Notes: generated from the letters alone by a model not told the origin. A stretch of DNA of 64,000 nt from Acidobacteriota bacterium (GCA_034667465.1 JAXDJV010000014.1:209-64208), one strand, 5' to 3'. Counted from the first letter of the stretch, positions 6,240 to 54,712 are shown. Made by a program: numbers and translations.

Positions 6240-7049
6240 TTACAACACGATGACCCGGCGCGCGTTCTGGCCGGGGACATCCCAGAAACTACGATCCTGC
6301 TGGCTGAACAGATCGGCCGGCAGGATCGTGTTCCTCTGGTTCGGCCGCACGCGCGACGCCACTCTGTGCAGGCCCGGCATCCCTAAACGTTCATCGAATT
6401 CCGGCTCGTCGTATTCGACCTGTTCGAAGTCATGCGCGAACGGCTCTTCTCCGAGAAACTCGTAGAGGCGCGTCATCACCTGGGCGGGCTGCTCCGTCAG
6501 TGACTCGTACCGAACGACGATCATGCGATCCGCCTGTTCGCCGCTCCATGCCTGCCGCAGCGCCTGCAGCGCCGGACCGACCGGACCACTCTTCATCATC
6601 GACTCGACGCGCGTATAGACATTGGCCGCGGCGTCAGCGGGAAACAGTTTTCCGCGGCGCAGCGGTGCAGCCTGCACGCGGCGCTCGAAACTGTCGAGGA
6701 TCCATGCCGGGCTTCGGACGCACGCGATGACTCTGGCGTCCGGCCACAGCTCGTGAATGGCCGGCAGTTGCGCACACCAGCCGCGGTTCGTGTCGAAGAT
6801 GACCTTCTCTCCCGCGACATCCTCATAGAACGTTTCGACGAGCGAGCGCGTAACTCCCGTGCGCTGCCGCTCGGTGAGAAACATCGCGTACTCGTTCGAC
6901 TCGCTCATCGCGCGCAGCAATGATTCGAACAAGCCAAGAAGCGGGCCCGACATCGCGGCGTGAAACCGCGGGTTCTGTCGAAGGATCGCCGCCAGCAGCG
7001 TCGATCCGGAGCGTGGCAAACCCGAAATGAAATGGATCTTCATCGTCAT
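6240..7049 (-). CDS. Sulfotransferase-family protein (PAPS-dependent, Sulfotransfer_3-like)
   Basis: Start taken at MTMKIHFISGLPRSGSTLLAAILRQNP, which is a 5'-PSB-like P-loop. About 270 aa. The start overlaps the stop of the upstream LanC-like gene by 1 nt. Confidence 0.75.
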   Translation of the reverse strand: MTMKIHFISGLPRSGSTLLAAILRQNPRFHAAMSGPLLGLFESLLRAMSESNEYAMFLTERQRTGVTRSLVETFYEDVAGEKVIFDTNRGWCAQLPAIHELWPDARVIACVRSPAWILDSFERRVQAAPLRRGKLFPADAAANVYTRVESMMKSGPVGPALQALRQAWSGEQADRMIVVRYESLTEQPAQVMTRLYEFLGEEPFAHDFEQVEYDEPEFDERLGMPGLHRVASRVRPNQRNTILPADLFSQQDRSFWDVPGQNARRVIVL

Positions 7050-7918
7050 CAAACCGCCATCATCCGAACATTCACGTTCATCAGCGCGAGAGCAACGCCT
7101 GCCTCGCCATCCATCAGACAATCTCCGCCGGGATCAGGCGTCCATTCGCCGCGCTCGACGATCGCCAGCGTTCGCTCGTACCAGAGATTCGCGCGCACCT
7201 CATCCAGCTGGCTGAACATCCGCGTCATCCCGGCCGCCCCGCGGCGCAGCGATGCATCGGTGATCGTCTCCGGCGAAACTGCACACGCTTCCTCGAGAAG
7301 ACGGGACGCTTCGTGGTGATCCTGATCGCGGCCTGTGATGCGCGCGCAACGCGACCAGGTGGCCGCTGAATCGGACGGCAGCGCATCGAGAACACGCTCG
7401 AGCATCGATGGCGATGCAACTTCGGCAAGCAGATACATCACCCCTCGCGCCGAGCGCGCGCGATCGAGTTGCGATTCGAGATGATCGACCACGAGTTTGA
7501 TACCCGCCGCATGGTTTCGTTCCAGAAAGTAGATGCCGATTCCGGCAAGACCGCTCGCCGCGTCGAACGATCCTCGCCAACGCCCGCGCTCCAGTTCGCG
7601 AAGCAGCGCGGCGTCGGTGTCTTCATTGAGATCATCGGATACGCCAAGCATGCGCGACACGATTTCCACGGTCCAGCCCAGTCCCGCGAGACCTCCGCAG
7701 AGTCCCCACTGTTTCGTCGAGCAGAGCTCGTCCGCGCGAGCGATGGCGACGTTGAGATGCCGGATCGCAGCCTGCTTCCAATGCCGTTCGCTCGTGGCGA
7801 GATGCACGTTCGCGAACAGCAGCGCCTTCGCCGCACTGCGCGCCGGCAACGGCTCCTCCGCGAGCAAAGACTCAGCGAGCCTTCCGAGCACCGGAGTTTT
7901 CGCGTCGTGATTACGCAT
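7049..7918 (-). CDS. LanC-like (lanthionine synthetase C-like) alpha-toroid protein; start uncertain
   Basis: Repeated GxAGxG motifs (WGLCGGLAGLGWTVEIV, ASGLAGIGIYFLE, DGEAGVALAL). The start is placed at MRNHDAK, just after the upstream ABC gene stop. The first 45 codons of the ORF-track version overlap that gene. Confidence 0.5.
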   Translation of the reverse strand: MRNHDAKTPVLGRLAESLLAEEPLPARSAAKALLFANVHLATSERHWKQAAIRHLNVAIARADELCSTKQWGLCGGLAGLGWTVEIVSRMLGVSDDLNEDTDAALLRELERGRWRGSFDAASGLAGIGIYFLERNHAAGIKLVVDHLESQLDRARSARGVMYLLAEVASPSMLERVLDALPSDSAATWSRCARITGRDQDHHEASRLLEEACAVSPETITDASLRRGAAGMTRMFSQLDEVRANLWYERTLAIVERGEWTPDPGGDCLMDGEAGVALALMNVNVRMMAV

Positions 7919-10748
7919 ACTGCCTGGCGATGAGTCGCGAGAACAGTCCGCCTGCTCCTGCGAGCTCATCGAACGCTCCTTCTTCCACGATCTTCCCGCG
8001 ATCCATGACAAAAATCCGATCTGCCTTCCGAATCGTCGACAGGCGATGCGCAATCACGATCCGTGTCGCGCTGCTCAGCTCCAGCGTGCGCGTCACCACT
8101 TCCTGCGTCCGATTATCGAGCGCGCTCGTCGCTTCATCGAAGAGGATGATGCGCGGCTTGCGCACGAGCGCGCGGGCGATCAGCAGGCGCTGACGCTGCC
8201 CGCCGGAAAACGTACTCGTGCCGCTCTCGGAGATCAGCGTGTGCATCTCCATCGGCATCGCTCGTATGTCATCCGCCAGGCCGGCCGCCTCCGCCGCCTC
8301 CCACGCATCATCGAGCGTCAGCGACGACGACGAGCCGACGATGTTCGTGAAGATGTCGCCGCCGAGAAGCCGGCTGCTTTGCAGCACGACTCCGAGCTGA
8401 TGGTTGCGAATGGCCGAGATGTCGAGCGATGCGAGATCCTGTCCGTCGTAGTAAACGGCGCCGGTCTCCGGCGATTCGAATCCGAGCAGCAGACGGAGGG
8501 TCGTCGACTTGCCGGAACCTGATGGACCGACGAACGCGACAAACTGGCCGGGTCCGGCGCGGAACGAGACGTCGTCGAGCACGACCGGTCCGTCGGCGTG
8601 ATAGCGAAACGTCAGATGCGCGCATTCGATGAGCCCATTGAGCGCACCCGGATCGTTCTTCGTCTCCGTGACTTCCGGCGCCGTCTCCAGAATCGGCGCC
8701 GACTTCTCCATCACAGCTGCCGCGGAGACGATGCCGGTCGCAGCGTTGCTCAGCGCCACCACGCTGGCGAACAGCGTTCCGAACGCCGCGCTGAAGGCGA
8801 CGAAGTCGCCGGTGCGGAACGACTCGCCTTTTCCGAACAGCAGCCAGCCGCCCATGGCGAAGAGGAGCGCGGTGCAGAGTACCGGCAACACATCGTTGAA
8901 GACGTTGATCGCCGCTTTGAACGATCCGGCGCGATGCGCCTCCGCGCGCTGTTTCGAAAACGCCGCGCTCCACACTGCGAAGGCGCGTCGCTCCGACGCG
9001 GAGACGCGCAGTTTGGCGATGCCGGCGATCATCTGAAAGACGAGGCCGGAAACGCGCGCGTGCGCTTCCTGCTGCAGGCGCTCGTGGCGCAGCGATTCGC
9101 GGATGAGGAGTCCGTTGATCGTCCCCGCAACCGCGATCAAAGCAACGGCCATCAGCGCCAGCCGCCAGTCGTAATAGAAAAGGATGATCACGTTCACCGC
9201 GGAAAACGCGCTGGTGAGGACGACGGTGAGCGTCGACGTGCCGATGACTTCCTGCACGGTCTGAATCGCCGCGGCGCGCTGGCTGAGATCGCCCACCGCG
9301 TAGCGGCGGAAGAAGGGAACCGGAAGAGAGAGCAATCTGTCGACGAGCGCCGTCTGCAGTGCGGCGCTGATCCGCCCTTCCGTTCGCGTCAGCGCGAATG
9401 CCCGCGTGATGTCGAAGAGTGCCGCGCCGACTGCCGTGGCGCTGAGCGCGACGAGCACCGTGACGAAGTCCACCGATCGCGCATTCGGGATGACGAGGTT
9501 GAAGATGTGCGCGGTGGCCAGCGGGATGGCCAGCGCGAGAAGGCCGCCGGCGAGCGCTGCGACCACGATTCCGGCAAGGTCCGACCTGACGAGCGGTGCG
9601 ATGAACGAAACGAGATCGTGCACTTCGCGCGCGCGATCGGGGAGCGGGCGATAGAAGGTGACGGCGAATGGCTGCAACTCGGCGGCGACCGCCGGCGTGA
9701 CCGGTCGTCTGCCTCCGCTTTTCGGATCGTGAAGTACATAAGACCCGCGGCCCGCCGGAAGGAGCGCGACGGGCGACGCATCTTCCTTCAGATATCCGAG
9801 CAGCGAGCCGGCATCGCTCCGCCACCAGAGATCGCGCAATGCCACGCGCCGGCTTCGCACGCGCGACGTTCTGCAAATCGCCGGAAGCAGATCGCTCGCG
9901 TGCCGCACCTCCCATCGCGGAGGATCGCGAAACTCGATGCCGGCGACGGAACCGATTGCGCGGCACGCCGCCATCATCGGATCGCGCATGACCGACGCAT
10001 CAACCGCCGTCGTTTCCGGTTCGAGAACCGACGCCAGGTTGCCGAGTGCGTGTTGCCACATCCGCTGATCGGACGCCGCTCTGGCCTGCAGCCGCTGCGT
10101 CGTCTGCTGGTCTTCGATGTCGATCGCACCGGAGAGACCTGCCTGCATCAGATCGATGAGTACGCCGAGGCCGGATGTGTCGCCGCCGTCGCGCAGGTGT
10201 TCCTCGGTGTCGCGCGTTTCGAAGCGCGCATCGTTTACAGCAGCGATCCAGAGACCGTGAAGCGGGACCCATCCATGTTCGGGACCGAGCTCGAGCCACG
10301 AGCGCGCGCCGATCCGCGTCGAACCTTCGATGTGCCGGATCCAGATGGTTCGCTCGCGAACGCTTGCATGCTTTCCACGCCGCAGAATGAATTGCTGTCC
10401 TGGTGCGAGCAGCTCATGCATGGCAACGTGATCGGGCGAAGCGAGGAGCGGTGCGAGACTGGCGACGAGACGATCGATCGCCGCTGCATGAACGACATCG
10501 GCCAGCGCGGAAACCGGCACGCTGCGAAGACGCGTGCTGCCATGACCCACCGCGGTCAGCACGAATCGCGCGTCCGGCGGAGGAGGCGCCGGCGGAATCA
10601 GATCGCCTGCCTCGGCGGACCAGAGATAGCGCCGCGCTCCATAGCCTTCCGCGAGGAGCGGCACGGCGAAGACATCGACACTTCCTTCGACGACGAGCCA
10701 GGCGCAGCCGGCGTCATCGAGAGGCAGCGGCGAACCGTCGCGCTCCAT
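7911..10748 (-). CDS. NHLM/NHLP-type bacteriocin-export ABC transporter (permease + ATPase) with an N-terminal cNMP-binding-like extension
   Basis: 945 aa. About 300 aa of N-terminal beta-roll/cNMP-like domain, then 6 TM helices, then Walker A GPSGSGKST, signature LSGGQRQRL and Walker B ILFDEATSALD. It matches the peptidase-less partner of a C39-peptidase ABC transporter in NHLM systems. Confidence 0.8.
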   Translation of the reverse strand: MERDGSPLPLDDAGCAWLVVEGSVDVFAVPLLAEGYGARRYLWSAEAGDLIPPAPPPPDARFVLTAVGHGSTRLRSVPVSALADVVHAAAIDRLVASLAPLLASPDHVAMHELLAPGQQFILRRGKHASVRERTIWIRHIEGSTRIGARSWLELGPEHGWVPLHGLWIAAVNDARFETRDTEEHLRDGGDTSGLGVLIDLMQAGLSGAIDIEDQQTTQRLQARAASDQRMWQHALGNLASVLEPETTAVDASVMRDPMMAACRAIGSVAGIEFRDPPRWEVRHASDLLPAICRTSRVRSRRVALRDLWWRSDAGSLLGYLKEDASPVALLPAGRGSYVLHDPKSGGRRPVTPAVAAELQPFAVTFYRPLPDRAREVHDLVSFIAPLVRSDLAGIVVAALAGGLLALAIPLATAHIFNLVIPNARSVDFVTVLVALSATAVGAALFDITRAFALTRTEGRISAALQTALVDRLLSLPVPFFRRYAVGDLSQRAAAIQTVQEVIGTSTLTVVLTSAFSAVNVIILFYYDWRLALMAVALIAVAGTINGLLIRESLRHERLQQEAHARVSGLVFQMIAGIAKLRVSASERRAFAVWSAAFSKQRAEAHRAGSFKAAINVFNDVLPVLCTALLFAMGGWLLFGKGESFRTGDFVAFSAAFGTLFASVVALSNAATGIVSAAAVMEKSAPILETAPEVTETKNDPGALNGLIECAHLTFRYHADGPVVLDDVSFRAGPGQFVAFVGPSGSGKSTTLRLLLGFESPETGAVYYDGQDLASLDISAIRNHQLGVVLQSSRLLGGDIFTNIVGSSSSLTLDDAWEAAEAAGLADDIRAMPMEMHTLISESGTSTFSGGQRQRLLIARALVRKPRIILFDEATSALDNRTQEVVTRTLELSSATRIVIAHRLSTIRKADRIFVMDRGKIVEEGAFDELAGAGGLFSRLIARQYA

Positions 10749-10750
10749 CG

Positions 10751-18665: not shown

Positions 18666-19309
18666 TGCGCACTCCCGCTGGCGTTCGCGCGCGTTGCCCT
18701 GACGAAGGCGATCTGTTCCCGTGATGCAGCCGGCAGGCGTGCGAAAAGCGAATCGGTCTCGAGCGTTTCGTCTATGTGATCCTTTCCGTGCCGGAGCGCG
18801 ATGGCGTCGAGAAGTGCCGCGGCGTCTCGTTCCTGGCCGACATGAACGGCGATCCAGCCGGCCAGCTGCGCGTCGATCGACTCACTGCGGTGTCCGGCGA
18901 GAAGCGCCATCGAAAAGCCCGCACCGTGATCGAATGCATAGCCGAGACACTCGAGCAGAAACGGGGTGTAACGAGTCGAATCAGCGAGAGCAAGTTTCGT
19001 CAGTCCTTCCACCGCCTTGTCTTCACCGGCAAATGCCACGACGTGTGCGAGCCGGGAAATCTCCTCGGCGCTCATCGTTCCCTTGCGCCCCGCCTCGATG
19101 CGTGCGAGAAGCGCGGGAACGACGACCGCAGGGCGGTTTTGCGCGAGCCTCGTCAAATCCTCCCACTCCTCCGCGTCAGACGTTGCCAGCACCCGGTCGA
19201 TGTAGCCGAGAACCTGTACGTCGGAGAGCGACGTAACGTGATCGGCGGCGAGCAGCGGAACTGCCGTCAGCGCGAAGGCCACAAAGAGAGTTTTCACGTT
19301 ACATGACAT
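18662..19309 (-). CDS. Hypothetical secreted protein
   Basis: Signal peptide MSCNVKTLFVAFALTAVPLLAADH. Translationally coupled to flanking genes. Confidence 0.5.
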   Translation of the reverse strand: MSCNVKTLFVAFALTAVPLLAADHVTSLSDVQVLGYIDRVLATSDAEEWEDLTRLAQNRPAVVVPALLARIEAGRKGTMSAEEISRLAHVVAFAGEDKAVEGLTKLALADSTRYTPFLLECLGYAFDHGAGFSMALLAGHRSESIDAQLAGWIAVHVGQERDAAALLDAIALRHGKDHIDETLETDSLFARLPAASREQIAFVRATRANASGSAQ

Positions 19310-21980
19310 TGGTCATTACCTCCACCATGTGAATGAAGAGCGTCGACGTCGGAGGCGGGTCATAAAGAAAGATCACGCCGGTGGCGCTGCAATCGAAAAG
19401 GCTGAGGCTCGTGTGGACGTAACTGGAATTTGACCACCGTTCCGATGGCAGATGGTTCGCGCCGAAATAATAGAGCGCGCTATAAGAGCAAACGACGCCG
19501 TCATTTGAAGGACTGCCGGCCGGACAACCATTCGGCTGACTGTCATTGACGTCGTTCCAGTCGCACGCCGGAGCACGAAGTGCCTCATTGCAGAAGGTTC
19601 CGGCGGCGGCCAGCCAGTAGCCGGGCTGGCCGGCCAGCGACGCCGGATCGTTCCAGCCGGTATAGAGCGAGAAGAGTGCGGTAGAGAAGATCGGCGGGCT
19701 GAGCCGAAGCTGGCTGGCCATGTCGAGCTCGAGGCTCGGGCAGCGGAAGAGAGGATCGAGGCGATCGCAATAGGGGAAGCCGCCGTTCGGCGTGCCGAGC
19801 GTAATCAATCCGCGGACCCGTCGTCCCGAGAAGACGCCGCCGTAATTCCGGAGAATTGCTTCGCGCGCGATGAGGCCGCCCATGCTGTATCCGATCAGAA
19901 TGACGTCAGAGTTCGCGTTGCTGTGATCCGCGATGTAGGTCGCCAGTGCGCGTCCGCCGTTTTCCAGCGTGCAGCTGGAATTGCAACTCGCGCAATAGGT
20001 GAATCCGTCATTCACGACGAATCGGTTGGACGGCAGTGCCTCGGCAAGATGAACGCCGAGGTTGTGCATGTCGCTCGCTGTTTGCCCGATGCCGTGGAGG
20101 ACGAATACGCGGATGAGCGGTGTCGTCGTTGTCCCGACCGCGATCTGCAATCCAAACGAACCGGTCGCGGGAGTGTACGACGTTGCTTCGATCGTATAGG
20201 AGCCGGCGTTGAGCGACTGCGTGATACGCGAGTTGGTCCCGTCGGCGTCATCGTTCGACGTGATGGCGCTTCCGCTGCTGCCGCTTCCAGCCAGCAGGAA
20301 AAGGTACGTATCGAAGCTGTTCGAGGTCAGGTCGATCGTAACGCTGGTCGTCGAGGCCAGAGTGAACGTGAAGTACTTCGCGTAGCTGCCGCTTCGGTGT
20401 GTCGAAGCGCACGCGGAGTCGAGGCTGCCGCTCACACTCTGATTTGTTCCGACCGGCGTCGTGCAACCGCTGCTTCCTCCGCCGCTGCTGCTGCCCGCAA
20501 TTCGGATCGAGAAGGAACCTGTCGCCACGTCATAAGAGGTCGCTTCGATCGTATAGGTTCCCGCCGCGAGCGTCTGACCGACGTGTGAGTTCGTCCCGCT
20601 GTAATCGTCGTTCGAGGCAAGGACGGTTCCTCCGCTGCCGCTGCCGGAGAGGAGATAAAGGTATGTGTCGAATGACGACGACGTCATGTCGATCGTCACC
20701 GCTGTGCTCGAACTGAGAGTGAACGTGAGGTACTTCGCGTATCGGCCGCCGGAGTGAACGGAATTACAGGAGCTGTCGAGAGTCCCGGAGATGCTTTGAT
20801 TGAGCGCCGCGGCCGACTGGCAGCTGCCGCCGCTTCCTCCGCCGCTGCTGCCGCTGATCTGCAGCGCAAACGACCCGCTGCTGACGTCATAGGACGTCGC
20901 TTCGACCGTGTACGTGCCGGCGCTCAGGGTCTGGCTAATCCGCGAGTTTGTGCCGCTGTAATCGTCGTTCGACGTAATCGCGCTGCCGGCGCTGCCACTG
21001 CCGGAGAGCAGAAAGAGATAGGTGTCGAACGTCGTCGAGGTCATGTCGATCGTGATGACGGTCGATGAGCTGACAGTGAAAGTGAAGTAGCGCGCGTTGT
21101 GCCCGCTGCGATGGACCGAAGCACAGGCGGAGTCGAGCGTGCCGGAGATGCTCTGGTTCACTGCTACGGTCGACTGGCACGAGCCGCCGCCACTGCCGCC
21201 TCCCGACGCCGTTCCTGTTAATTGAAGCGTAAATGCACCGACGGAGGTGTCGTAAGAGGTCGCTTCAATCGTGTACGTGCCGGCGCCGAGCGTCTGGCTG
21301 ATGCGCGAGTTTGTCGCGCTGTAATCGTCGTTCGATGCGATGGCCGTCCCGCCGCTGCCGCTCCCCGAAAGCAGGAAAAGGTATGTGTCGAACGACGAGG
21401 CGTTCATCGAGATCGTGACGAGTGTTGATGCGGAGAGGGTGAACGTGAAGTACTTCGCGAACCGCCCTCCGCGGTGCACGGAGGTGCAGGAGGAATCGAG
21501 CGCACCGGAGATACTCTCGTTGAGCGCGACGGAGGTCTGGCAGCTGCCGCCTCCGCCTCCGCCGCCGGCGCTGCTGCCGCTGATCTGCAGCGCGAAAGAG
21601 CCGGTGGAAAGCGCGTATGACGTCGTTTCGACCGTGTATGTACCGGGACTCAGCGTCTGGCTCACCCGCGAGTCGGTGCCGCTGTAATCGTCGTTTGAGG
21701 CGACGACTGCTCCGCTCGTTCCGTTACCGGAGAGCAGATAGAGATAGGTGTCGAAGGCGCCTGAGGTCATCGAGACGGTGACGGACGTCGTGGAATTGAC
21801 GGTAAACGCGTAATAGCGGGCATAACGGCCGCTGCGGTGAACCGACGTACACGACGCGCTGAGGCTTCCGCTGATGCTCTGATTGATCGAGACGGTCGAA
21901 AGACATTGTGCTCGAAGCGGGACCGGCAGAAGCGCGGCCATTGCAGCGAGAAGAACGAACAATGCGGAACTGCGATTCAC
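19299..21980 (-). CDS. Secreted protein with five tandem pre-peptidase C-terminal (PPC) domains and a C-terminal alpha/beta-hydrolase lipase/esterase domain
   Basis: Five repeats of about 125 aa with the pattern CxxxVxxNQSISGxLxxSCTSVHRSGRYAxYFTFT...FDTYLYLLSG...SNDDYSGTNSR. They are followed by HGIGQTASDM...GYSMGGLIAREA (GxSxG nucleophile elbow). N-terminal signal peptide. Confidence 0.75.
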   Translation of the reverse strand: MNRSSALFVLLAAMAALLPVPLRAQCLSTVSINQSISGSLSASCTSVHRSGRYARYYAFTVNSTTSVTVSMTSGAFDTYLYLLSGNGTSGAVVASNDDYSGTDSRVSQTLSPGTYTVETTSYALSTGSFALQISGSSAGGGGGGGSCQTSVALNESISGALDSSCTSVHRGGRFAKYFTFTLSASTLVTISMNASSFDTYLFLLSGSGSGGTAIASNDDYSATNSRISQTLGAGTYTIEATSYDTSVGAFTLQLTGTASGGGSGGGSCQSTVAVNQSISGTLDSACASVHRSGHNARYFTFTVSSSTVITIDMTSTTFDTYLFLLSGSGSAGSAITSNDDYSGTNSRISQTLSAGTYTVEATSYDVSSGSFALQISGSSGGGSGGSCQSAAALNQSISGTLDSSCNSVHSGGRYAKYLTFTLSSSTAVTIDMTSSSFDTYLYLLSGSGSGGTVLASNDDYSGTNSHVGQTLAAGTYTIEATSYDVATGSFSIRIAGSSSGGGSSGCTTPVGTNQSVSGSLDSACASTHRSGSYAKYFTFTLASTTSVTIDLTSNSFDTYLFLLAGSGSSGSAITSNDDADGTNSRITQSLNAGSYTIEATSYTPATGSFGLQIAVGTTTTPLIRVFVLHGIGQTASDMHNLGVHLAEALPSNRFVVNDGFTYCASCNSSCTLENGGRALATYIADHSNANSDVILIGYSMGGLIAREAILRNYGGVFSGRRVRGLITLGTPNGGFPYCDRLDPLFRCPSLELDMASQLRLSPPIFSTALFSLYTGWNDPASLAGQPGYWLAAAGTFCNEALRAPACDWNDVNDSQPNGCPAGSPSNDGVVCSYSALYYFGANHLPSERWSNSSYVHTSLSLFDCSATGVIFLYDPPPTSTLFIHMVEVMTNVM
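20180..21910. repeat. Five in-frame tandem repeats of about 375 bp (PPC-domain modules) inside the 19299-21980 gene
   Basis: Near-identical nucleotide blocks are visible (e.g. recurring gtcgaaggt/gtcgaatga...gatcgtgac...gtgaacgtgaagtacttcgcg). Confidence 0.7.
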
Positions 21981-22830: not shown

Positions 22831-23018
22831 TCGATCACCTGTTTTTTGGATGTGTTGCCCGTTGGAGGGACATGAACGGCGTTTTCGCCGCTCCGGAAGG
22901 GGAGAGTGCGCAAGCAGTCACTTCCCTGCCCGTGAAGATGAAGAAAGAAAGATCGCTCCTGCCCGTTACCTCCTTAACCGGCATGAATCCAACCTTCCGG
23001 CAATCCGTATACTCGTCA

Positions 23019-23776
23019 TGATGAACGGAAGGCAGGCGGTGCGTACGGTACGTCCCATCCGGACGGTGCTCGTCGATGACGAGCCGCTGGCGCTGGAGGG
23101 GCTGCGCGCGCTTCTCGCGCACGAGGAGGACATCGACGTCGTTGCCGAGTACGGGAGCGGCACGGCCTTCCTGCGCGATGCCGCGGCGATCGGCGCGGAC
23201 CTCGTTTTCCTCGATGTGGAAATGCCGGCTCTTTCGGGGCTGGAGGTGCTGGAACAACTCCACGCCGCGGGGGCGCAGCCGCACGTCGTTTTCGTGACCG
23301 GCTTCGACCAATACGCCGTGCGCGCGTTCGAGGAACAGGCGCTCGACTACGTCCTCAAGCCGTATCGCGCGGACCGCATGGCCAGAACGCTCTCGCGGTT
23401 GCGTCAGCAGATGGCCTGGGCGGCGGAATCGCCGGCAGCGGCCTTTCTCACCCGCGTGGCCGTCAGGAAGAACGCGCACATCCACCTCGTCAGGATCGAC
23501 GACGTCGACTGGCTCGAGACGGCGGGCAACTACGTGAGCCTGCACGTCGGTGCAGCGGAGTATCTCTACCGGACCACCATGGCGGCCATCGAGTCGCGGC
23601 TCGATCCCGCGCGCTTCGTGCGGATCCATCGCTCCACGATCGTCAACGTCGACCGCATCGTGGAGTTGCAATCCACCTTCGGTCGCGACCTCGTCGTCCT
23701 GCTGTGCGACGGCGCGCGCCTCCGCCTCGGCGCCCCCTACCGGGATGGTTTGCGCAAACTGATCGAAGGCCTCTGA
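23019..23776 (+). CDS. LytTR-family response regulator
   Basis: Receiver domain (VLVDDEPLALEGL...DLVFLDVEMP) plus a C-terminal LytTR DNA-binding domain (IHLVRIDDVDWLETAGNYVSLHV). The start is chosen at MMNGRQ, not at the ORF-track start, which overlaps the SHOCT gene. Confidence 0.85.
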
Positions 23777-23832
23777 ATTCACACTTTCGTATCGAAAGGT
23801 TGATGGCGTTCCGGCGGTCCTTACGCATATAA

Positions 23833-24933
23833 ATGGATATGCGCGATGGCCATGAATTCCGTCCGGCGCCGATGGCGCACCTCGGCCGCACGCTGGCGCT
23901 CTTCTGGCTCCTGTATTCAGTCTTCCATACCTCGTTCGACGTCGCCGTCCTGCGCTCGGCGGCGGCGCCAGTTCCGTATCCGCGGCTGACGCTCACCACG
24001 CTGCTGCACTCCGCGGTCTGGGCCGCCTTTTCATGGCTTCTCTTTCGCGCGTGCGACTTCGCCCTCTCGCGCCGGCGGCCTTTTGCCCGGCGCGCAGCGT
24101 TCCTCGGCGCAGTCGTGGCGACGTGGGCGCTCCGTCTCGTCTGTTATGCGCTCACCCTCGCCTTGCTCCGCACTCCGCCGCGGATCGACCGCGCGTCTTT
24201 CGTGCGTGCGCTGCAGTCCGGCGCCTCCGGCGTCGCCGTGTTCACGATCGTTCTCGCCGCGACGGCGGTCGGCATGCGCTGGTGGCAACGGCAGCTGCAG
24301 GCGGCGCGTCATCGCGCGGAAAGTGAAGAGACTCTCGTTCGTGCGGAGCTGCGCGTCGTGGCGGAACAACTGGAACCGCACTTTCTGCTGAACACGCTGA
24401 CGAGCATCCAGGCGCTCGCGACGAACGACGCGTCCGCCGCGCGCGACATGCTCACAGGACTGCGCGAGCTGTTGTCGTACTCCATCCGTCACGGCGCTGC
24501 AGCCACCGTTTCGCTCGAAGACGAAGTCCATTTCGTCCGCCAGTACCTCCGCCTTCAGTCGCTCCGTTTCGGCACGCGGCTCCGCACGCGGATCGCGATC
24601 CCGGCCGAGCTCCTCGACTGCCGGATCCCGCGTCTGATCCTGCAGCCTCTCGTCGAGAACGCGATCAAGTACGGAGTCGCGCGCCGCGAAGATGGAGGGG
24701 AGATCGCGCTCGACGCCGAGCGTGGCGTCGGGATGCTGACGATTCATATTCGGAACAGCAGCGCAGGCACGCCTGACTCGCCCGGCTTCGGGATCGGCAT
24801 GGCCGCGGTCCGCGCGCGGCTGTCGCTCCTCTTCGGAGCTGCGCAGCGGGTGACGCTGACGGACGACGGCGCCGGTATGACGGTCGTGACGGTCACGATG
24901 CCTCTCGTCGAAAAAAAGAGGATCGCCGCATGA
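23833..24933 (+). CDS. LytS-type sensor histidine kinase (His_kinase PF06580-like + HATPase)
   Basis: N-terminal TM helices, LEPHFLLNTLTSIQAL (phospho-His box of the LytS family) and a C-terminal ATPase with LVENAIKYG and GFGIG. Confidence 0.8.
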   Translation: MDMRDGHEFRPAPMAHLGRTLALFWLLYSVFHTSFDVAVLRSAAAPVPYPRLTLTTLLHSAVWAAFSWLLFRACDFALSRRRPFARRAAFLGAVVATWALRLVCYALTLALLRTPPRIDRASFVRALQSGASGVAVFTIVLAATAVGMRWWQRQLQAARHRAESEETLVRAELRVVAEQLEPHFLLNTLTSIQALATNDASAARDMLTGLRELLSYSIRHGAAATVSLEDEVHFVRQYLRLQSLRFGTRLRTRIAIPAELLDCRIPRLILQPLVENAIKYGVARREDGGEIALDAERGVGMLTIHIRNSSAGTPDSPGFGIGMAAVRARLSLLFGAAQRVTLTDDGAGMTVVTVTMPLVEKKRIAA

Positions 24934-25560
24934 CGAAGCTTCATCTGCTCGGTGTGGCGAAGGTGCGGCGCAGCCTGATGCTTCCGATCATCGTGTTCAC
25001 CGTGCTGAACGCGGCGACCCATGCGCGCGGGTTCGACGGAGAGTGGTGGTGGATGGTGCCGGCGTATGTGCTCTTCGACAGCCTGCTCTGGACCGGTGTC
25101 GCGTTTCTCATTTTCGCCGTGGTCGAGTGGAGGGAGAAACTGCGTCCGCAGCCGCGCTTCGCGGCGATGGTGGTGGCGACGGCCGGCATCGCCACGCTCG
25201 CCGCGGCGATCATCACCGTTCGGGCGCTCTTCGATTCGATCATCCATCAGCAGCCATTCGTGCGGCGGTGGCTCAGGTATCTGCCGGCCGGTTTCTACGG
25301 CGCCGCGTTCTACGTCGCGATCGTCACGGGAATCGCCTACGGGGTTTATTCGTGGGCGGTCGATGACCGGCGTCTCGCCGCGGCGGCGGAGCTCGATGCG
25401 GCGATCGCGAGGGCGGAGCTGAAGGCGGCGTCGGCACGTCTGCAGCCTGAATCACTCGACGCCGCACTGGCACGAATCTCCACGCTCATCGCGACGGACG
25501 TCGCCGGCGCGCAGCGCCTCATCTCGAACCTCGGAGCGCAGTTGCACGATTCACTCGCGG
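24930..25560 (+). pseudogene. 3'-truncated paralog of a LytS-type histidine kinase (TM region plus start of kinase core only)
   Basis: TM helices then ELKAASARLQPESLDAALARISTLI (the same motif as the intact kinase). There is no ATPase domain, and the reading frame runs into the 3' end of lanB on the other strand. Confidence 0.45.
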
Positions 25561-28500
25561 ACCCCCGCTCCTCGCCAGTTGCGAGCGGTACAACTGCACG
25601 AGATAGTCGTAGACGACCAGCTCGTGCTCCGGCCCGGCGGAGCGGCTGAGACGATTCACGAACATGTGGATGACGCTCTGAAGGATCGCCTGCAGTGGCA
25701 TCTGCAGACGGCCGCGGCGCTCGAGTGCGATCAACTCCGCGACGACGCCGGCGATCGCTTCCGATCTCCGCTGCAGCGCGCGAACGGACGTTGATTCATC
25801 GACCAGTCGCTGGAACGCGCCGCGCTCCCGGCGGAACCGCTCCGCGAGCAACTCGCGCACGGCTTCGTACTGGAACTGCTTCGCCAGCAGGTCGCGTGAC
25901 GTCTCCGCCAGTCGCAGCCGGCCCGCGGCGTCGCAGCCGAAATCGCGGAGCAGCGTGTCGATGCCGGCGGCGATGAACGGTGCGCGAGACGCGGAGCCGG
26001 CGTCGCCGCTGCAGGCCTCGAGCAACTCGATGACCGCGACGCTGTCGCGGAAGAAGATCTCTTCGACGAGATCGATCGCCTCCGCGCCGCCGTAGCGTTC
26101 CACTTCGCGCTCATACGTGTCGAACTGCACTTTCCACGCGAGACCTGCATCGAGCAGACGGCTTCCTGCCGCCTGCAGCGCCGGTTGCACGCTTTCGCGC
26201 AGCGTGCGCGGATCGCCGTGAAAGCGGATGCGCAGATGCCAGTGCGGATCGGAATAGCGGATGAAGAACCAGCGGTCCGCCGCACTGTTCGCAATCGCGT
26301 CAGCCGCAAGCGGCGCGATCTCCTCCGCCAGGACGCGATCGGCGGTCGCGGTGCCTGTATAGAACTTCGCGAAGAGCCACTCCGATCCGGGAGCAAACGT
26401 TCGTTGAATGAGTGGCGCGGGCGACTTCCTCACCGCCGGCGCCGGCGCCGCGACCGGCGCGCGTTTCGCGAAGGGGATCACGAGCTCGTGGAAGAAGCTC
26501 CCTTCCGGACCTTCTGCGCAGAGTTGATCGGGCGCGGGATAAAGCTCCGTGAAGACGAAGTCTTCGCGGTTGCGAACGAGCTCGACTACCGCGTCGAGCG
26601 CGAGGACGTTTTCGAAGTCGACGAGCAGCTCGTGATCGCCATCCGTCAGCACGACGTAGCGAGGCATGCGATGCTCCTCGCGAAGGCGCTGAACCGCGCG
26701 GTAGCGTGCGGCGCCGGAGCTCGCAGCGATCGTTTGGATCTGCGCGCTCATGATGCGCCAGCGCGCACGCGCCAGGACCAGCCGGCCGCTGACGATGCGC
26801 GGGAGGAACGGCAACGTCTCGAGCGGCCCCCAGTTCCATTGCATGCCGAGTCCTTGCGAAACCGCGGCGAGAAACCGATAGACGCCCAGGCTTTCAGAGG
26901 TCGTGTTGTGCGCGCTGGTCAGTCGCGGAATCACTTCGCGGTCGAGCCGTTTCGAGCGAAGACGGATGCGATCGCCCGAGACGCTGACGAGCAGATCGTC
27001 GAGCGGAATCTGCGCATCTTCCGGCGCGCCCGAGCGGCCGAGGAATGGAATCTCGTATTTGCGCAACACGGGGCGCGCGAGGATGTTGCCGATCCGTCCG
27101 GCGGGCAAATGCACGATCTCCGCGAACAGCGCGCCGGGACGAAGCGCTTCTTCCGCCGCCAGATGTTGCTCGACGCCTTCGCGGATTGCAGCATCGGCGT
27201 GGCAGAAGCGGCCGAGCATGCGCGCGCCCGAAGGTCCCGACGCGAAGTGGAGGTGCACGCGGTAGTCGCCGCGCTCCACCGCCTCGGGCGACGTCGCAGC
27301 GATCGTGGCCATGGCATGGAACGCGTCGGGCAGCGGCGGCCGATCGATGTTCTGCAGTCGCGCCAGATCCTCATCAATGAGCTCGATCTCCGTCCGCCCT
27401 TCGCCGAGTGCGCGAACGAGTAACTGCAGCAACACGGCGTCGCTCGGGCCCAGCGCGACGCGCTGTCTCTCGACTCGTGAGCGGAGCGGAAGACCGGCGA
27501 GTAGCGGCGACGCTTCGGCGGCCGCGCTGCCGGCGCGCTCGTAGCCGATGCCGTTTTCTTCGTCGAGCGCGACGAGGAGCGGAACTTCGCGATCGGACCC
27601 GTAGCGCTCCGAAAACGCGGAGCGAAATTCGTCGAACGCGGGCTCTCCCCGCTGCTGCGAAAAGAGGTGCAGGATCTCGACGCCGCGCAGGATTTCCGCG
27701 ACGACGTTTTCGCCGAGGACGACGTCCGATGGCGGCTTGATGAGATCGACCTGAAAGAGCCGCCTGAGCTCGACCGGAACGCCGAGCGGTTCGAGCTCGC
27801 GCGCGATCAGGCGATAGCGTTCCTCCGTCGAAGAGCTCGCGCAACGATCGATACTCGCGAGCGCGTGAGCTGCGCCGGCGAGTCGCGTACGTGCGTCGCC
27901 GGCGGCGGCGACGCCTTCGAGTTGCTGCAGCAGATCGGCGGTGCTCTCATCGCCCGTCACCGCAAGTGCGAGGTCGGGAAGGAGCAGCTGGTTGTCGACG
28001 ACGTCATCGACGAATGCCGCGGCATCCTCCATCGTGATCTCACCATCCGGATCGGAAGCGACGAGCGCCTCGGCCAGCTCACGCAAACGCGCGCCGCCGC
28101 GCGCGCGCTGCAGCGTGTCGCGCAATGCATCGAACGCGTCGAACGCCACGAGGTGATACGTGCGCTGGCGTCCCGCGACGCGCGACTCCGCGAAGCGCAG
28201 ACGTCCCGCCGTTTCGTAGAGCGTCGAGTTCGGACGGAACGTCAGATCGCTGCGGATCTCGGGAATCCGCGCGAGGTGCTCGCAGAGCGCGTGCAGGTAA
28301 TCCATGTCCAGGCGACTGTGCCGGCGATACGCGTTGCGTTCCGTCAACGCCAGCCGCGTCTGCTCGCCGATGCGGCCGGGCGTGCAGCCCGAGAAGAGCC
28401 CGAACGGCGTCGAGCGCGTGACCATGCGCAGGAAGTAGCGCACCAGTCCCTGCTCCGTGCGCCGCCCTTTCTTCGAGTCGGGCTCGCGCCGCCACGCTCC

Positions 28501-28743
28501 GATGCTCTCCATGATGTCGGGCGAGGCGAGGAAGATCGCATCGGCGACTTCCGGACGACTGAGCAACGCCTGCAACCGCTCGCGCAACAGCGTGCGATCT
28601 TGCGTCAACGCGTCCTCGAGGGTTGTGTCATCAGCTGACGCTGCGCGCAGTCCATCCGTCCACGCATCGAGCGTTTCGCGTGGAAGCAACGGCGTGCGCA
28701 TTACCACCAGACCGCTCGCGCCGAACTCTGTTGGGATGGTCAT
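25519..28743 (-). CDS. lanB: Class I lanthipeptide dehydratase LanB (full length, about 1074 aa)
   Basis: The true start is taken at MTIPTEFGASGLVVMRTPLLP, the hallmark LanB N-terminus. The length fits glutamylation plus elimination domains. The 354 codons upstream in the ORF track are Arg-rich read-through. Confidence 0.85.
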   Translation of the reverse strand: MTIPTEFGASGLVVMRTPLLPRETLDAWTDGLRAASADDTTLEDALTQDRTLLRERLQALLSRPEVADAIFLASPDIMESIGAWRREPDSKKGRRTEQGLVRYFLRMVTRSTPFGLFSGCTPGRIGEQTRLALTERNAYRRHSRLDMDYLHALCEHLARIPEIRSDLTFRPNSTLYETAGRLRFAESRVAGRQRTYHLVAFDAFDALRDTLQRARGGARLRELAEALVASDPDGEITMEDAAAFVDDVVDNQLLLPDLALAVTGDESTADLLQQLEGVAAAGDARTRLAGAAHALASIDRCASSSTEERYRLIARELEPLGVPVELRRLFQVDLIKPPSDVVLGENVVAEILRGVEILHLFSQQRGEPAFDEFRSAFSERYGSDREVPLLVALDEENGIGYERAGSAAAEASPLLAGLPLRSRVERQRVALGPSDAVLLQLLVRALGEGRTEIELIDEDLARLQNIDRPPLPDAFHAMATIAATSPEAVERGDYRVHLHFASGPSGARMLGRFCHADAAIREGVEQHLAAEEALRPGALFAEIVHLPAGRIGNILARPVLRKYEIPFLGRSGAPEDAQIPLDDLLVSVSGDRIRLRSKRLDREVIPRLTSAHNTTSESLGVYRFLAAVSQGLGMQWNWGPLETLPFLPRIVSGRLVLARARWRIMSAQIQTIAASSGAARYRAVQRLREEHRMPRYVVLTDGDHELLVDFENVLALDAVVELVRNREDFVFTELYPAPDQLCAEGPEGSFFHELVIPFAKRAPVAAPAPAVRKSPAPLIQRTFAPGSEWLFAKFYTGTATADRVLAEEIAPLAADAIANSAADRWFFIRYSDPHWHLRIRFHGDPRTLRESVQPALQAAGSRLLDAGLAWKVQFDTYEREVERYGGAEAIDLVEEIFFRDSVAVIELLEACSGDAGSASRAPFIAAGIDTLLRDFGCDAAGRLRLAETSRDLLAKQFQYEAVRELLAERFRRERGAFQRLVDESTSVRALQRRSEAIAGVVAELIALERRGRLQMPLQAILQSVIHMFVNRLSRSAGPEHELVVYDYLVQLYRSQLARSGGPRVNRATALRGSR

Positions 28744-29444
28744 GACGCGATCGCTCCACGTTGAGTTTCGATGCGTGGCGGAATGCTGACGACCATCAGC
28801 CGATCCCATGACGGCTCGACGTCGGTAGCCGCGGCGAGCAACGCGAGACCGATGCCGGCGATGCCGGAGAGGAATCCCGGCTCGCCTCTCCACGAACCTT
28901 CTGCGCTCGGAGTCGATTCGTACCAGCTGAGAAATCCTGCGAGGCCTTTGCCGGGCCGGCGCATGTCGAGCGCGATCCGATACCACCGCAGCGCGGCTTC
29001 GCGAAGCTCGTCGTCGCCGGTCGCCTGCCAGATGCGGTTGAAGAGGTGCGCAACGCCGGTTGCTCCGTGACACAGACCGGCGTCGGCGACCATCGTGTCT
29101 TCGACTGAGCGCCGCGCCGCGACGCGCGCGATGCTGATCGCTTCGTCGCGCCATTCGGAGCGGTCGAACGCATGCGCGGCGGAAAGCAGCACCGCGGCGA
29201 CGCCGAGGTCGCCGTAGCACCACGCCGTGCGCGTTGGCCGCGGCGCGGAATCGGGTGGAATGTGCGATGGGAACAGCGAGCCGGGCCAGATGCCTTTCTG
29301 CGCGAGCACCCATTGCACCGCGTCGTTCGCGAGTTGCGCGACGCGCCGATCGCGCACGCCGGCATGCTGCGCGGCGGCGAGAAAACCGATCACGCCCGGG
29401 ATGCCGTGCGCGACGCCGAGGTTGTAGTGGCCGCGCGGCATCAA
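28740..29444 (-). pseudogene. lanC: LanC cyclase, C-terminal half only (GxAHG, WCYG and CHG Zn-ligand motifs present; N-terminal about 200 aa missing)
   Basis: HYNLGVAHGIPGVIGFLA, TAWCYGDLG and AGLCHGATGVAHL. The same frame continues upstream only about 35 codons (...DENGAWFSIPDWLPDWQRELMPRGH) before a stop. ATGA overlap with lanB. Confidence 0.7.
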
Positions 29445-29504
29445 CTCGCGCTGCCAGTCCGGCAGCCAGTCGGGAATCGAGAACCACGCGCCGTTTTCGT
29501 CGCG

Positions 29505-29694
29505 CGAAGAGGCCAGCAGTCCCCGCGGCCGTGAGCAACCGTTGCGCGTCGAGGCCGTGCCGCGAGAGACCGGTCACGCCGCGCACGTCGTCGAGCGAGA
29601 CGTGTCTGCCGTGCAGTGCCAGCGTCATCGCCAGACATGCCGAGCCGCAGTCCGTTGCCGCGGTCTGCGCGACGAAGGGGATGCGTTTAGCCAT
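29505..29694 (-). pseudogene. Fragment of a C39 bacteriocin-processing peptidase domain (first about 65 aa, lacking the His/Asp half)
   Basis: MAKRIPFVAQTAATDCGSACLAMTLALHGRHVSLDDVRGVTGLSRHGLDAQRLLTAAGTAGL matches the Q...CG.A.LAM...G..SL..LR......G.S..G...AA...G pattern of C39 domains. It then runs out of frame into lanC. Confidence 0.45.
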
Positions 29695-30586
29695 GACCGA
29701 GTCCCACCGCGAAGACGAGTGCCAGCAGCAGCGCGGCGACGGTGGCCACCGCGAGCCACGGTGTGCCGCGCGTCCATGCGGCGTTGAGTCGCAGCGGTTC
29801 GGCACCGGCGAGCAGCGGCTGATCGATCTCGCGCAGCGCGTTGTGCCGAAACGGACTGCCCGGCGTTTCGATCAGCCACGTGACAAGGTAGGGACTGGCA
29901 TGCGCGGCAAGTGCTTCGAGCATCGCGACGTCCTTCGGCTCGAACGGCGGATCGTGTTCCGGCCGGAGCGCGATGAGCACCGCGACGATCGCGCCGCGCG
30001 GATCGCTGTCGAGCCGCGTCAGACAGACGGTCATCCCTGTCCGCACGATGAAACTGACGAGGCCGACCGCGGCGCTCGCTTCTTCGCTCGCGTCGCCCGG
30101 ACTCCAGAGCACCTGGTGCTCGCGCTCGAACAACACGCAGCGGCTGCGACGGGTCTCGATGACGCTGCCGATCGCGCGCTCGACCGCATCGGCGACGTCG
30201 GCGACATTCTCCGCCGTCGCCATCCTCCGCAAATCCTCGGCGGGCAGAAACAGCTCGTCCGAACCTTCACGCCCATCGATCGCGCGCGCGCCGTCGATCA
30301 GCGCGTCGAGCTGGCGTTCCGGAAGGTCACCGCATGAGAGATAGAAGAGCCGATCGGCGTCGATGAGCGGCTGAAAGTCCGCGAGCTGGTCACGCGCAGT
30401 GAGAACGATGCTCGTACAGCGCGTGCCCTTCCCGGCGAAGAGGTCGAGTACCGCGATCACATCGCATGCGACGGCCCCGGGACCAAAGACGAGGACAGCG
30501 CGCTCGTGTTCCCGAATCGCGTCGAGCTGCGCGCGATCGATCGACGATTTGATGCGGTAGAGCGGCTGCGCGCTGGCACTCATCAC
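29687..30586 (-). CDS. Hypothetical protein with GAF-like domain and C-terminal TM helix
   Basis: 299 aa. The central VGLVSFIVRTGMTVCLTRLDSDPRGAIVAVLIAL block is GAF-like. C-terminal hydrophobic helix TPWLAVATVAALLLALVFAVGLG. Confidence 0.4.
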   Translation of the reverse strand: MMSASAQPLYRIKSSIDRAQLDAIREHERAVLVFGPGAVACDVIAVLDLFAGKGTRCTSIVLTARDQLADFQPLIDADRLFYLSCGDLPERQLDALIDGARAIDGREGSDELFLPAEDLRRMATAENVADVADAVERAIGSVIETRRSRCVLFEREHQVLWSPGDASEEASAAVGLVSFIVRTGMTVCLTRLDSDPRGAIVAVLIALRPEHDPPFEPKDVAMLEALAAHASPYLVTWLIETPGSPFRHNALREIDQPLLAGAEPLRLNAAWTRGTPWLAVATVAALLLALVFAVGLGHG

Positions 30587-30674
30587 CGGCCGAGTTTGCT
30601 GCGCGTCGATCGCGCGCCGAAGACGAAAGGGACGGATGCAGCAGATTCAGGGATGGGTGGGGCGGGGGTGGGGA

Positions 30675-31370
30675 TTATGGAACCGCCCGTGAGAGGGCGG
30701 TGTCCTGGACCGCGTGTCCAAGCGCTTGCCGAGACTCGCTATCGATCGCCTGCGATGATCGGCGAATCGATGACACCATTTTCGGGGGAAGACGCTTCCA
30801 TTCCTTGCGCAGATCCATCGGGCGGTCCTCTGCGAGAACCTCAATAAGTTGTACGGCCTGTCGCCGGTCTTTGCGCGCCTTCTGCTGCTCGGACACCGGT
30901 CGTCTCTCCGCGACCCAGAGTTTGTGCAGTGCGAAGGCGGCCGGTGTTGGTATCTGCACGAGGATTCCGGCGCCGGCGAGGACGGCGGCTTCCGTACTTT
31001 CGGCAAGGAGATATCCGAGGCCGGGCAGCGGTTGAGCGGCAGCATTGAGCTGCGGAAGATGCACCGGCTTCGCACCGTCCCGATTGCCGGGTGTCAGGAG
31101 ATCTACGCGGAGGTCGGGGCCGCGAACTTTGAACGACGTGCCTGGGTGGTGCGGATCGAGCTCCGGTATGGCAAAGAAGCGCGGGTCGGAAACACGGAGC
31201 GTCTCCAGAATGTCGACACGGATCGCGGCGACGCCGACACTGATCGCCGGTTGCGCGACATCGTCGTCGTCGGTTCGACCCGTTTGCTGTTCGAATCGCA
31301 CTGCCAGCATGTTGGCGATGCAAATGAACGCCTGCGTGCCGATGCGAGCCTTGCAGCTCAAGCACCTGGC
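30675..31370 (-). CDS. Hypothetical protein (possible nucleotidyltransferase-fold); the 5' end abuts or overlaps a tRNA-derived repeat
   Basis: 237-aa ORF with no decisive motifs. The ...LHKLWVAERRPVSEQQKARKDRRQAVQLIEVL segment is reminiscent of nucleotidyltransferase/toxin-fold proteins. The start is uncertain. Confidence 0.3.
   Translation of the reverse strand, partial: ARCLSCKARIGTQAFICIANMLAVRFEQQTGRTDDDDVAQPAISVGVAAIRVDILETLRVSDPRFFAIPELDPHHPGTSFKVRGPDLRVDLLTPGNRDGAKPVHLPQLNAAAQPLPGLGYLLAESTEAAVLAGAGILVQIPTPAAFALHKLWVAERRPVSEQQKARKDRRQAVQLIEVLAEDRPMDLRKEWKRLPPKMVSSIRRSSQAIDSESRQALGHAVQDTALSRAVP
30681..30712 (-). repeat. Degenerate copy of the anticodon-arm plus D-arm segment of the tRNA-Glu gene (about 31 of 35 nt identical)
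   Basis: aaccgcccgtgagagggcggtgtcctggacc versus tRNA region accgccgtgagagggcggcgtcctggacc. Confidence 0.5.
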
Positions 31371-31423
31371 GGGTAGTTGGCAGCGCATACGGATTTGAAC
31401 CCGTGTTACCGCCGTGAGAGGGC
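31371..31423 (-). repeat. Direct repeat of the 3' half of tRNA-Glu plus 8 nt of 3' flank (attachment-site-like repeat, candidate attR)
   Basis: gggtagttggcagcgcatacggatttgaacccgtgttaccgccgtgagagggc matches 37362-37418 with 3 differences, in the same orientation. Confidence 0.7.
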
Positions 31424-31664
31424 TATAGCGGCGAATCTATATCTATCTGATTCCAAATGTTTAGCGCGACATCGCCATCTTGCGGGTCCGCCGAAATATG
31501 CCATTTCGGGCACCTCCAAGGCCAAGTATGCGATGGGTTTTGCGAAGGCAACTACCCCGGCCACAGTTGCGGAAACGATTGACCGAGGTCTGACCTCCAA
31601 CGCATTCCGCCTTCACTGTAACGAATTGCTCTCTTTCGTCACTACACAAGGTGAGGAGATCCAT

Positions 31665-34604: not shown

Positions 34605-35645
34605 AACGTGACGTCCCGCCGCCTACGCGGTGGGGCGTTTGCGCTCTTGCACAGTGGGGACCGGCACTGCGAGTCTCGTCGGGTGACGAGGAGTGACATT
34701 AGGCGGCTGGATGGGGTCACACCTTTCTTCCTTGTTTCGCATCCCAAGCTGGGTCAGACCTTCGTTTCGACTCCGCCGCAAAACGAGGGTGTGACCCCAC
34801 TCTCGTGCGCCAAGGGTGATTATTAGCAGGCCAACCCGGGGAACGTTGCGTGGCCGTTAACCGGTGGGGCAACGCGCGCCGCGCACCCGTGTGGCAATGC
34901 CACGCGCCGGGCGTACATCGTGCGCGTCCCCTGCTGCAGTGTTGGTGTAGCGCTGGAACATATAAAGGCTGTGGCTGCGGCCACAGCACTCCAAGCGGTC
35001 TCGCGAGTGGGGTGTTTCCTGGACGAAGATTGGACCTGCCGATGAGGCACGATCAAGACGCAACCTGGCAGCTGCGCCGCGAACGGTACTCGTCCTGGAG
35101 TGCTGTAGCCGCGGCTACAGCCTTCGGTGACCAGCGACTGGAGTTCGATCAGCCCCTTCGGCGCTCGTGGACTTCGGGCCGGTCCATCCGGGGCAGCACT
35201 TCGCGCGGAAACTCGACGGCCACCGACTTTTCGAGAATGGAGACGGAGACGATCAGGCGCAAGGCGCCGCGCTCCTGCAGCACGACGCCGGTGTACCGCT
35301 GATGAGCCTTCCTTGATGTCCACCGGGCGCCGACGGTGATCTCGTCGATGGGGGTCAGGACGGCGCCGCTGGCCTGGAGCTGCCGGATCTGCAACAGTTC
35401 GGCGGTGAGCCTCGGCTGGCCGGGACCTCGAGCATGTTGGCACGGCGTTGGTGCGCCAGAGCGTCTCGCGGAGTCCCTGCACCCGCGGACGAAGATGTAG
35501 CCGGGAACAGCGGCAGGTGCGAGACGAACGTCCTCCCGGCGAGGTAAACCCAGTCGCGGAGATAGCTGCTGCGCGATGTATTACGGCGTTATAGCCAGCC
35601 TTCTGTTAATATCTCCGCTTCAGCTTCAGCACAGCGAGGATACTT

Positions 35646-37166: not shown

Positions 37167-37369
37167 GGATCGTGAGAAACTCCGCGCGATGGTCCAGCAT
37201 CGTTTTCCTTCGCCAATCGCGCGCGAATGGCTTTGGGACGCAGGATGAGAATGGTCGAGAGCCTTTGCCTCGCCCTTGAATCGCTCAGCAGCCGGGTCAC
37301 GGTCTCGCGCGAGGTGCCGATCATCTGCGCGACTTCCGGCCTAAATTACTGGAGCGGCAAGGGATAGTT

Positions 37370-54681: not shown

Positions 54682-54712
54682 AGTTCGCACCTGACCGTCT
54701 AACATTCTGATC

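Follow-up and report, generated by a model that had tools for sequence, protein, structure and literature searches.

Organization of the locus

Lanthipeptides are ring-containing peptides of the antimicrobial type. The region considered here holds the genes of a class I lanthipeptide cluster and is embedded in a 64-kilobase (kb) stretch of DNA from an uncultured member of the Acidobacteriota (JAXDJV010000014.1:209-64208; hereafter, the window), whose positions are used as coordinates throughout. The cluster belongs to a lanthipeptide family that is common in Thermoanaerobaculia. Its biosynthetic genes lie on the minus strand and comprise a full-length dehydratase gene (lanB), the 3' part of a cyclase gene (lanC) and the very beginning of an exporter gene (lanT); a gene for a GAF-domain protein stands at the head of the operon, and on the opposite strand there are genes for a short kinase-like protein, a LytS-type histidine kinase and a LytTR-type response regulator (Table 1). 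The window LanB (NCBI MEA2570282.1, from an Acidobacteriota genome bin) is also encoded on an 837,889-base-pair (bp) JGI metagenome contig (sample 3300044704) and on a 30.9-kb Logan contig (SRR24887482).

The lanB gene is full length, as reported in a preliminary description of this DNA made from the sequence alone: both dehydratase domains are complete (Pfam Lant_dehydr_N for glutamylation, 2e-167, and Lant_dehydr_C for elimination, 2e-63, each matched over its full length), and the product shows homology to MibB (5EHK) and NisB (4WD9), two dehydratases of solved structure. Its ATG at 28743 overlaps the stop codon of lanC (ATGA), an arrangement of translational coupling. The analysis of the lanC frame likewise bears out the absence of the N-terminal part of the cyclase and the persistence of its motifs: the frame matches positions 153-349/350 of the Pfam profile LANC_like, retains GVAHG, WCYG and CHG, and, when the LanC of an intact cluster (L003, introduced below) is used as a tblastn query, is recovered over no more than residues 164-426 of the latter. 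The stop codon upstream of the methionine of MPRGH in this frame is 44 codons away, rather than the approximately 35 counted previously, and the last 27 of these codons alone are derived from lanC; the earliest usable start (TTG at 29444 or ATG at 29441) would give a protein of at most 233-234 amino acids (aa).

Immediately upstream, and in a different frame, the open reading frame (ORF) starting at ATG 29694 matches positions 2-62/133 of Peptidase_C39 (E 4.7e-11) and includes the region of the catalytic cysteine (TDCGSACL). The C39 fragment had been estimated at about 65 residues; its homology to LanT ends after codon 57, and residues 1-57 are approximately 98% identical to the LanT of L003. 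No lanA was found in the 64-kb window by tblastn with the LanA sequences of six relatives (best E 0.14), in agreement with the preliminary description. The same searches repeatedly returned a weak match at 54484-54714, which was rejected as the N-terminus of a larger, unrelated ORF. A second close lanC or a close lanT was found nowhere else in the window. Among the features of a working class I cluster, LanB is thus present, and LanA, a complete LanC (about 400 aa or more) and a LanT leader peptidase/exporter are not in the window.

Table 1. Features of the lanthipeptide locus and of the neighbouring NHLP-type operon (a dot in the strand column marks the junction)
Feature	Position	Strand	Basis or remark
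lanB, full-length class I lanthipeptide dehydratase, 1074 aa	25519..28743	-	Pfam domains; homology to 5EHK and 4WD9
lanC 3' remnant, codons 167-426 and stop	28740..29522	-	Pfam LANC_like; alignment to relatives of 426-430 aa
Deletion junction, blunt lanT/lanC join	29522..29523	.	blastn against L003, L004 and L005; base inspection
lanT 5' remnant, codons 1-57 (one further base of codon 58 at 29523)	29524..29694	-	Pfam Peptidase_C39
GAF-domain protein with C-terminal membrane helix, 299 aa, first gene of the operon	29687..30586	-	Orthologues at the same position in relatives
Stop-free fusion ORF, 1391 aa	25519..29694	-	Translation
Kinase-like membrane protein, 239 aa, conserved	24930..25649	+	BLASTP to the neighbouring kinase; short orthologues beside intact clusters
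LytS-type histidine kinase, 366 aa, intact	23833..24933	+	Pfam His_kinase (1.2e-21) and HATPase_c (2.9e-7); syntenic in relatives
LytTR-type response regulator, 252 aa, intact	23018..23776	+	Pfam Response_reg and LytTR; gene call from source contig; syntenic in relatives
5'-truncated NTP_transf_8 gene, abutting the upstream edge of the cluster	30675..31361	-	BLASTP against L003; blastn map
cNMP-binding protein	14150-14683	-	NHLP operon
TIGR03794 HlyD-type secretion protein	12903-14153	-	Above cut-off
TIGR03796 C39-ABC	10751-12913	-	1026 bits, above cut-off
TIGR03797 ABC2	7911-10748	-	Above cut-off
LanC-like protein without zinc ligands, 306 aa	7049-7969	-	Pfam match to the N-terminal part of the profile only
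Sulfotransferase	6240-7121	-	NHLP operon

Intact relatives and the missing interval

A search with LanB retrieved many homologues from Acidobacteriota/Thermoanaerobaculia, and the genomic contexts of six of them (L003 to L008, with LanB sequences 70-89% identical to that of the window) were compared; the LanB of the intact cluster L003 is 89% identical. In five of these relatives the same eight genes occur in the same order, i.e., GAF protein, C39-ABC LanT, LanA, LanC and LanB, facing the convergent genes for the short protein, the LytS-type kinase and the LytTR regulator. The sixth contig, L006, begins inside lanT and maintains the same gene order from that point. The GAF protein has 319-332 aa, LanT 739-746, LanA 67-69, LanC 419-430 and the short protein 216-273, and LanT is composed of the domains C39, ABC_membrane and ABC_tran. 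The ORFs of 67-69 aa, located between lanT and lanC, are LanA precursors: they share a conserved double-glycine leader, ending ...LSERDLQGAVGG, followed by a core with six to seven cysteines and many serines and threonines, and the leader matches NCBIfam NF038153 (class I lanthipeptide leader L1a) with 30.4 bits against a cut-off of 22. A scan with the LanA alignment, limited to one genome per species, retrieved 24 loci, nearly all of them labelled Thermoanaerobaculia; 22 distinct loci span the position of lanC, the remainder being contig-end fragments, and in every one of the 22 LanC is full length and unsplit. Besides the six relatives, about 20 other genomes of Thermoanaerobaculia have the unbroken gene order. 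The syntenic loci, in which the preliminary description had proposed to look for an intact C39-peptidase, lanA and lanC, do contain that arrangement. A literature search for a Thermoanaerobaculia lanthipeptide family of this layout found no paper.

The blastn comparison of the window with L003, L004 and L005 revealed that the sequences are collinear across both operons, with the exception of a 75-bp gap in the GAF gene, a spacer of variable length beyond lanB and one large break. At this break the last position matching lanT (29524/29523) falls at codon 57/58, and window position 29522 is the first base of lanC codon 167. The window lacks 2832 bp with respect to L003, 2926 bp with respect to L004 and 2837 bp with respect to L005, and the missing interval of approximately 2.83 kb corresponds to lanT from codon 58 to its end, the whole of lanA, and codons 1-166 of lanC. 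The junction reads ...GCGG/GGACTG... (the slash marks the join), and its one extra base introduces a +1 shift that leaves lanC out of frame with lanT. Base-by-base inspection of the endpoints 29523/29522 disclosed no microhomology, repeat or overlap, the join being blunt. The proposal that a deletion has joined the 5' end of a C39 gene to the 3' part of lanC is therefore confirmed to the base, and the absence of lanA is explained by its position within the deleted interval. A single deletion of approximately 2.83 kb accounts for every element of the picture previously drawn for this locus, the missing lanA included.

The event was probably an illegitimate, blunt-ended deletion. On the basis of what is known of these protein families, in the intact relatives LanB would act as a glutamyl-tRNA-dependent dehydratase and LanC as a zinc-dependent cyclase, and the N-terminal C39 peptidase of the LanT exporter would cut the double-glycine leader. 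Deprived of its substrate, of its leader peptidase/exporter and of a complete cyclase, the window locus should be unable to make the peptide, and lanB, the GAF gene and the regulatory genes would still be intact because too little time has elapsed for their decay.

The substitution pattern is relevant to the age of the deletion. Branch-specific changes were counted at those codons that are shared by L003, L004 and L005 and from which the window departs in a single base. On the window branch lanB shows 47 synonymous and 13 nonsynonymous changes, with a ratio of nonsynonymous to synonymous rates (dN/dS) of approximately 0.10, a value also obtained for the L003 and L004 branches. In the lanC remnant the counts are eight and two, respectively (dN/dS approximately 0.08), and in the lanT remnant four and none. 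For the remnants, a neutral course along the entire terminal branch is rejected (P approximately 4e-6); no more than about 13% of the branch can post-date the deletion. Since the remnants carry the substitution pattern of purifying selection, the deletion would clearly be recent, as far as a crude count and small numbers allow. Moreover, lanB is no better conserved than the dead lanC and lanT remnants, so that recency alone would explain why lanB is intact, and the special role for which lanB was previously thought to be possibly retained is not needed.

A consequence of the join is an ORF of 1391 aa, opened by the lanT start codon, in which the 57 residues of the C39 peptidase are followed by 260 off-frame lanC residues (32% arginine) and by the whole LanB; past the junction, the lanT frame coincides with that of lanB and is free of stops. 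Maintenance of this frame by selection was considered and rejected: the corresponding frame of each relative contains one to three lineage-specific stops, few in number and none of them shared. The open fusion frame is best read as the outcome of chance.

Further lesions, flanking regions and neighbouring genes

The erosion of the locus, suggested by the preliminary description, finds support in two further lesions. The GAF gene has lost 75 bp (25 aa, in frame) inside the GAF domain, at approximately 29995-30000, and the window is the only sequence of the alignment with this gap; in L003 the 75 bp are flanked by the 6-bp direct repeat CGCGCG, as is typical of slippage during replication. No Pfam match is obtained for the window protein, whereas its orthologues in the relatives match Pfam GAF. 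The other lesion concerns the NTP_transf_8 gene, of which the window retains, truncated and relocated, codons 126-345 of a 345-aa gene that in L003 stands on the opposite side of the cluster (BLASTP, 87% identity between window residues 16-234 and L003 residues 126-344). The C-terminus of the GAF protein (29687-29830) reads ...SPFRHNALREIDQPLL...(membrane helix)...GLGHG and is conserved; we take this tail to resemble the N-terminal FRxxAL motif and membrane anchor of HlyD-type bacteriocin secretion adaptors, a putative likeness. The idea that the tail belongs to a truncated adaptor of this type was discarded, as the proteins of the relatives end at the same residue.

The flanks differ from the cluster in their divergence. 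In L003 the cluster is immediately adjacent to a flank 96.3% identical to window positions 35205-37332, whereas in the window a 4.5-kb insert, absent from L003, separates flank and cluster (region 30675-34604) and holds the NTP_transf_8 remnant together with a divergent trypsin-VWA gene (1023-1075 aa). The DNA of the cluster (22979-31342) is 86-88% identical to that of L003, against 96.3% for the flank, and the synonymous divergence (dS) from L003 ranges from 0.33 to 0.48 for the cluster genes, against 0.062 for the adjacent SH3_3 gene, the one flank gene compared. Flanks vary among the six relatives, no mobility genes were seen, and the GC content is not distinctive. The dS contrast at this single flank gene suggests that the cluster may have been exchanged between lineages as a whole cassette; the horizontally acquired island of the preliminary description thus receives some support from that contrast and from the varying flanks.

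At the other border, the preliminary description had noticed a kinase paralog without an ATPase domain, ending where lanB ends, and had regarded it as truncated. The lack of the domain and the end of the gene inside the 3' end of lanB are both correct. The protein encoded at 24930..25649 has no Pfam or NCBIfam match, and BLASTP relates it to the adjacent kinase (29% identity, E 3e-8), of whose transmembrane and dimerisation region it is a paralog. A glutamate replaces the phospho-accepting histidine (LQPESL versus LEPHFL in the kinase), the same LQPE occurs in all seven aligned orthologues, and none of these has an ATPase domain. As to the truncation, the orthologues beside intact clusters are just as short (216-273 aa), and their homology stops at the same point (...LHDSLA), after which a short variable tail follows; hence, the protein is not truncated at the island border and, to judge from this alignment, is a conserved histidine-less kinase-like membrane protein. 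An ATGA overlap (24930-24933) couples it translationally to the LytS-type kinase. A role as co-sensor, inhibitor or immunity protein is conceivable. The short protein is confined to the sub-clade that also possesses the kinase/regulator pair. The 131-bp convergent overlap between lanB and the short gene, considered as a possible third deletion, was dropped, because it recurs in L007 and because the length of the spacer ranges, across the relatives, from 0 to about 340 bp.

An apparently intact NHLP-type bacteriocin export operon (6240-14683, minus strand; Table 1) is located 13 kb from the cluster, and a precursor gene was not identified in it. Its LanC-like ORF (7049..7969) shares 31% identity with LanC, aligns to LanC residues 90-180 and 311-395, and carries RRG instead of CHG. 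The possibility that this ORF might be the missing N-terminal half of LanC was rejected on the basis of its low identity, of its extension over both LanC ends and of the loss of CHG; on these alignments it is to be regarded as a separate degenerate LanC paralog. A further gene on the minus strand (19299-21980) encodes a secreted protein of 893 aa with five near-identical modules of about 120 aa, to which the source annotation assigns a weak Pfam PPC match; after the modules comes a lipase/esterase-like domain with weak matches to DUF676/PGAP1.

Alternative explanations and comparison with known systems

The explanation that best accommodates these data is that a class I lanthipeptide cluster was recently inactivated by one deletion of approximately 2.83 kb, to which a probability of roughly 0.9 can be assigned; the locus is a case of ordinary gene-cluster decay and not a new system. 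Some points weigh against this conclusion. The JGI and Logan assemblies may derive from the same reads. The searches covered 64 kb of the genome, and a second lanA, lanT or lanC may lie elsewhere in it. No intact allele from the same strain was found, the 90%-identity cluster of the window LanB having a single member. The ancestral sequence of the junction is that suggested by relatives approximately 87% identical, and the branch dN/dS values derive from crude parsimony counting, for which the remnants offer few sites. Lastly, an exact search for the 28-nucleotide junction among JGI metagenome contigs gave 0 matches, but the source contig is absent from that collection too, which makes the result uninformative. 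The same search, with no further copy of the junction, might be adduced in favour of a sequencing or assembly artefact, already considered in the preliminary description, in which an intact lanT-lanA-lanC region is really present and the junction is a chimeric or collapsed join; the sequence comes indeed from a metagenome contig, and strain mixtures can yield chimeric joins. Nevertheless, the JGI and Logan contigs are 100% identical to the window over the 23.2 kb and 15.9 kb fetched, junction included, and the Logan contig was assembled by a different pipeline; the two endpoints have no repeat in common that could collapse, and the two independent lesions described above fit a real decay of the locus. 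An artefact is therefore very improbable.

A functional re-use of the surviving genes appears equally hard to sustain. According to this idea, LanB would be active by itself, or together with either the 233-aa LanC remnant or the 7049..7969 ORF (the latter in a sort of split LanC), on precursors encoded elsewhere and perhaps exported by the NHLP system. It draws on the intactness of lanB and its low dN/dS (approximately 0.10), on the zinc-ligand motifs kept by the LanC remnant, and on the presence, 13 kb away, of a complete NHLP export system with a LanC-like ORF matching the N-terminal part of the profile. The conservation of the dead lanT and lanC remnants, equal to that of lanB, speaks rather for recency than for function; the LanC remnant lies behind a frameshift, and at the homologous boundary it lacks a start codon; and no lanA-like gene is found in the window. 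As for a split LanC, no separate gene for an N-terminal half exists in the 64-kb window, the 306-aa ORF being a degenerate paralog (31% identity, RRG for CHG), and LanC is full length in all of the 22 distinct loci. A different possibility, which is a sub-case of the inactivation by deletion, is that the loss was selected, giving rise to a non-producing cheater that keeps its sensing module (kinase, regulator, histidine-less paralog and GAF protein). One deletion has removed exactly the producer functions, the regulatory genes and the paralog are intact with low dN/dS, and non-producer genotypes with disrupted C39-ABC exporter genes (blpA) occur at the pneumococcal blp bacteriocin locus. On the other hand, no immunity gene was identified in the cluster, the GAF gene is itself partly deleted, lanB, which would be useless to a cheater, has been kept, and a deletion that was recent and neutral would leave the same picture; a selected loss is for these reasons unlikely, albeit less so than the artefact or the re-use. 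Still more doubtful is a fuller version of it, i.e., a switch from producer to non-producer favoured by selection, in which the sensing module would answer the peptide of neighbouring cells and LanB would be either a leftover or re-used with the NHLP system and its zinc-less LanC-like protein.

The inactivation by a recent deletion makes this locus a base-resolved case of the death of a cluster for a peptide natural product, in which a single blunt deletion has taken away substrate, exporter and a portion of the cyclase and the genes that remain look perfect. It also represents a warning for genome mining: an intact LanB next to a called 233-aa "LanC-like" gene would score as a class I cluster, and no product would be possible. 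At the same time, the comparison defines the intact Thermoanaerobaculia family, with its conserved eight-gene layout and with LanA sequences fit for heterologous expression.

As regards the known systems, the closest curated model for the exporter is TIGR03796 (NHLP ABC1), which the LanT proteins of the relatives match with 623 bits, under the cut-off of 853; unlike the C39-ABC exporters, the window copy is devoid of the rest of the peptidase, of the membrane domain and of the ATPase. The window resembles the blp non-producers in the loss of the C39-ABC exporter and in the maintenance of two-component regulatory genes, and differs from them in having also lost the precursor and part of the cyclase. 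The likeness to class I lanthipeptide clusters (e.g., NisABTC of nisin and MibB of microbisporicin) resides in the full-length LanB, in the LanC-type His, Cys and Cys-His motifs and in the ATGA coupling of lanC and lanB, and, for the subgroup with an L1a leader (NF038153) in particular, in the LanA of the relatives; with lanA, most of lanT and 39% of lanC deleted, the window locus is a pseudogenised derivative of such clusters. Finally, the intact family departs from the nisin type in two respects: a double-glycine leader is combined with a C39-ABC LanT in the place of a separate subtilisin-type LanP, and a GAF/membrane protein and a LytS/LytTR pair take the place of a NisRK-type system. The GAF/membrane protein, the LytS/LytTR pair and the histidine-less paralog are unusual accessory genes of the intact family.

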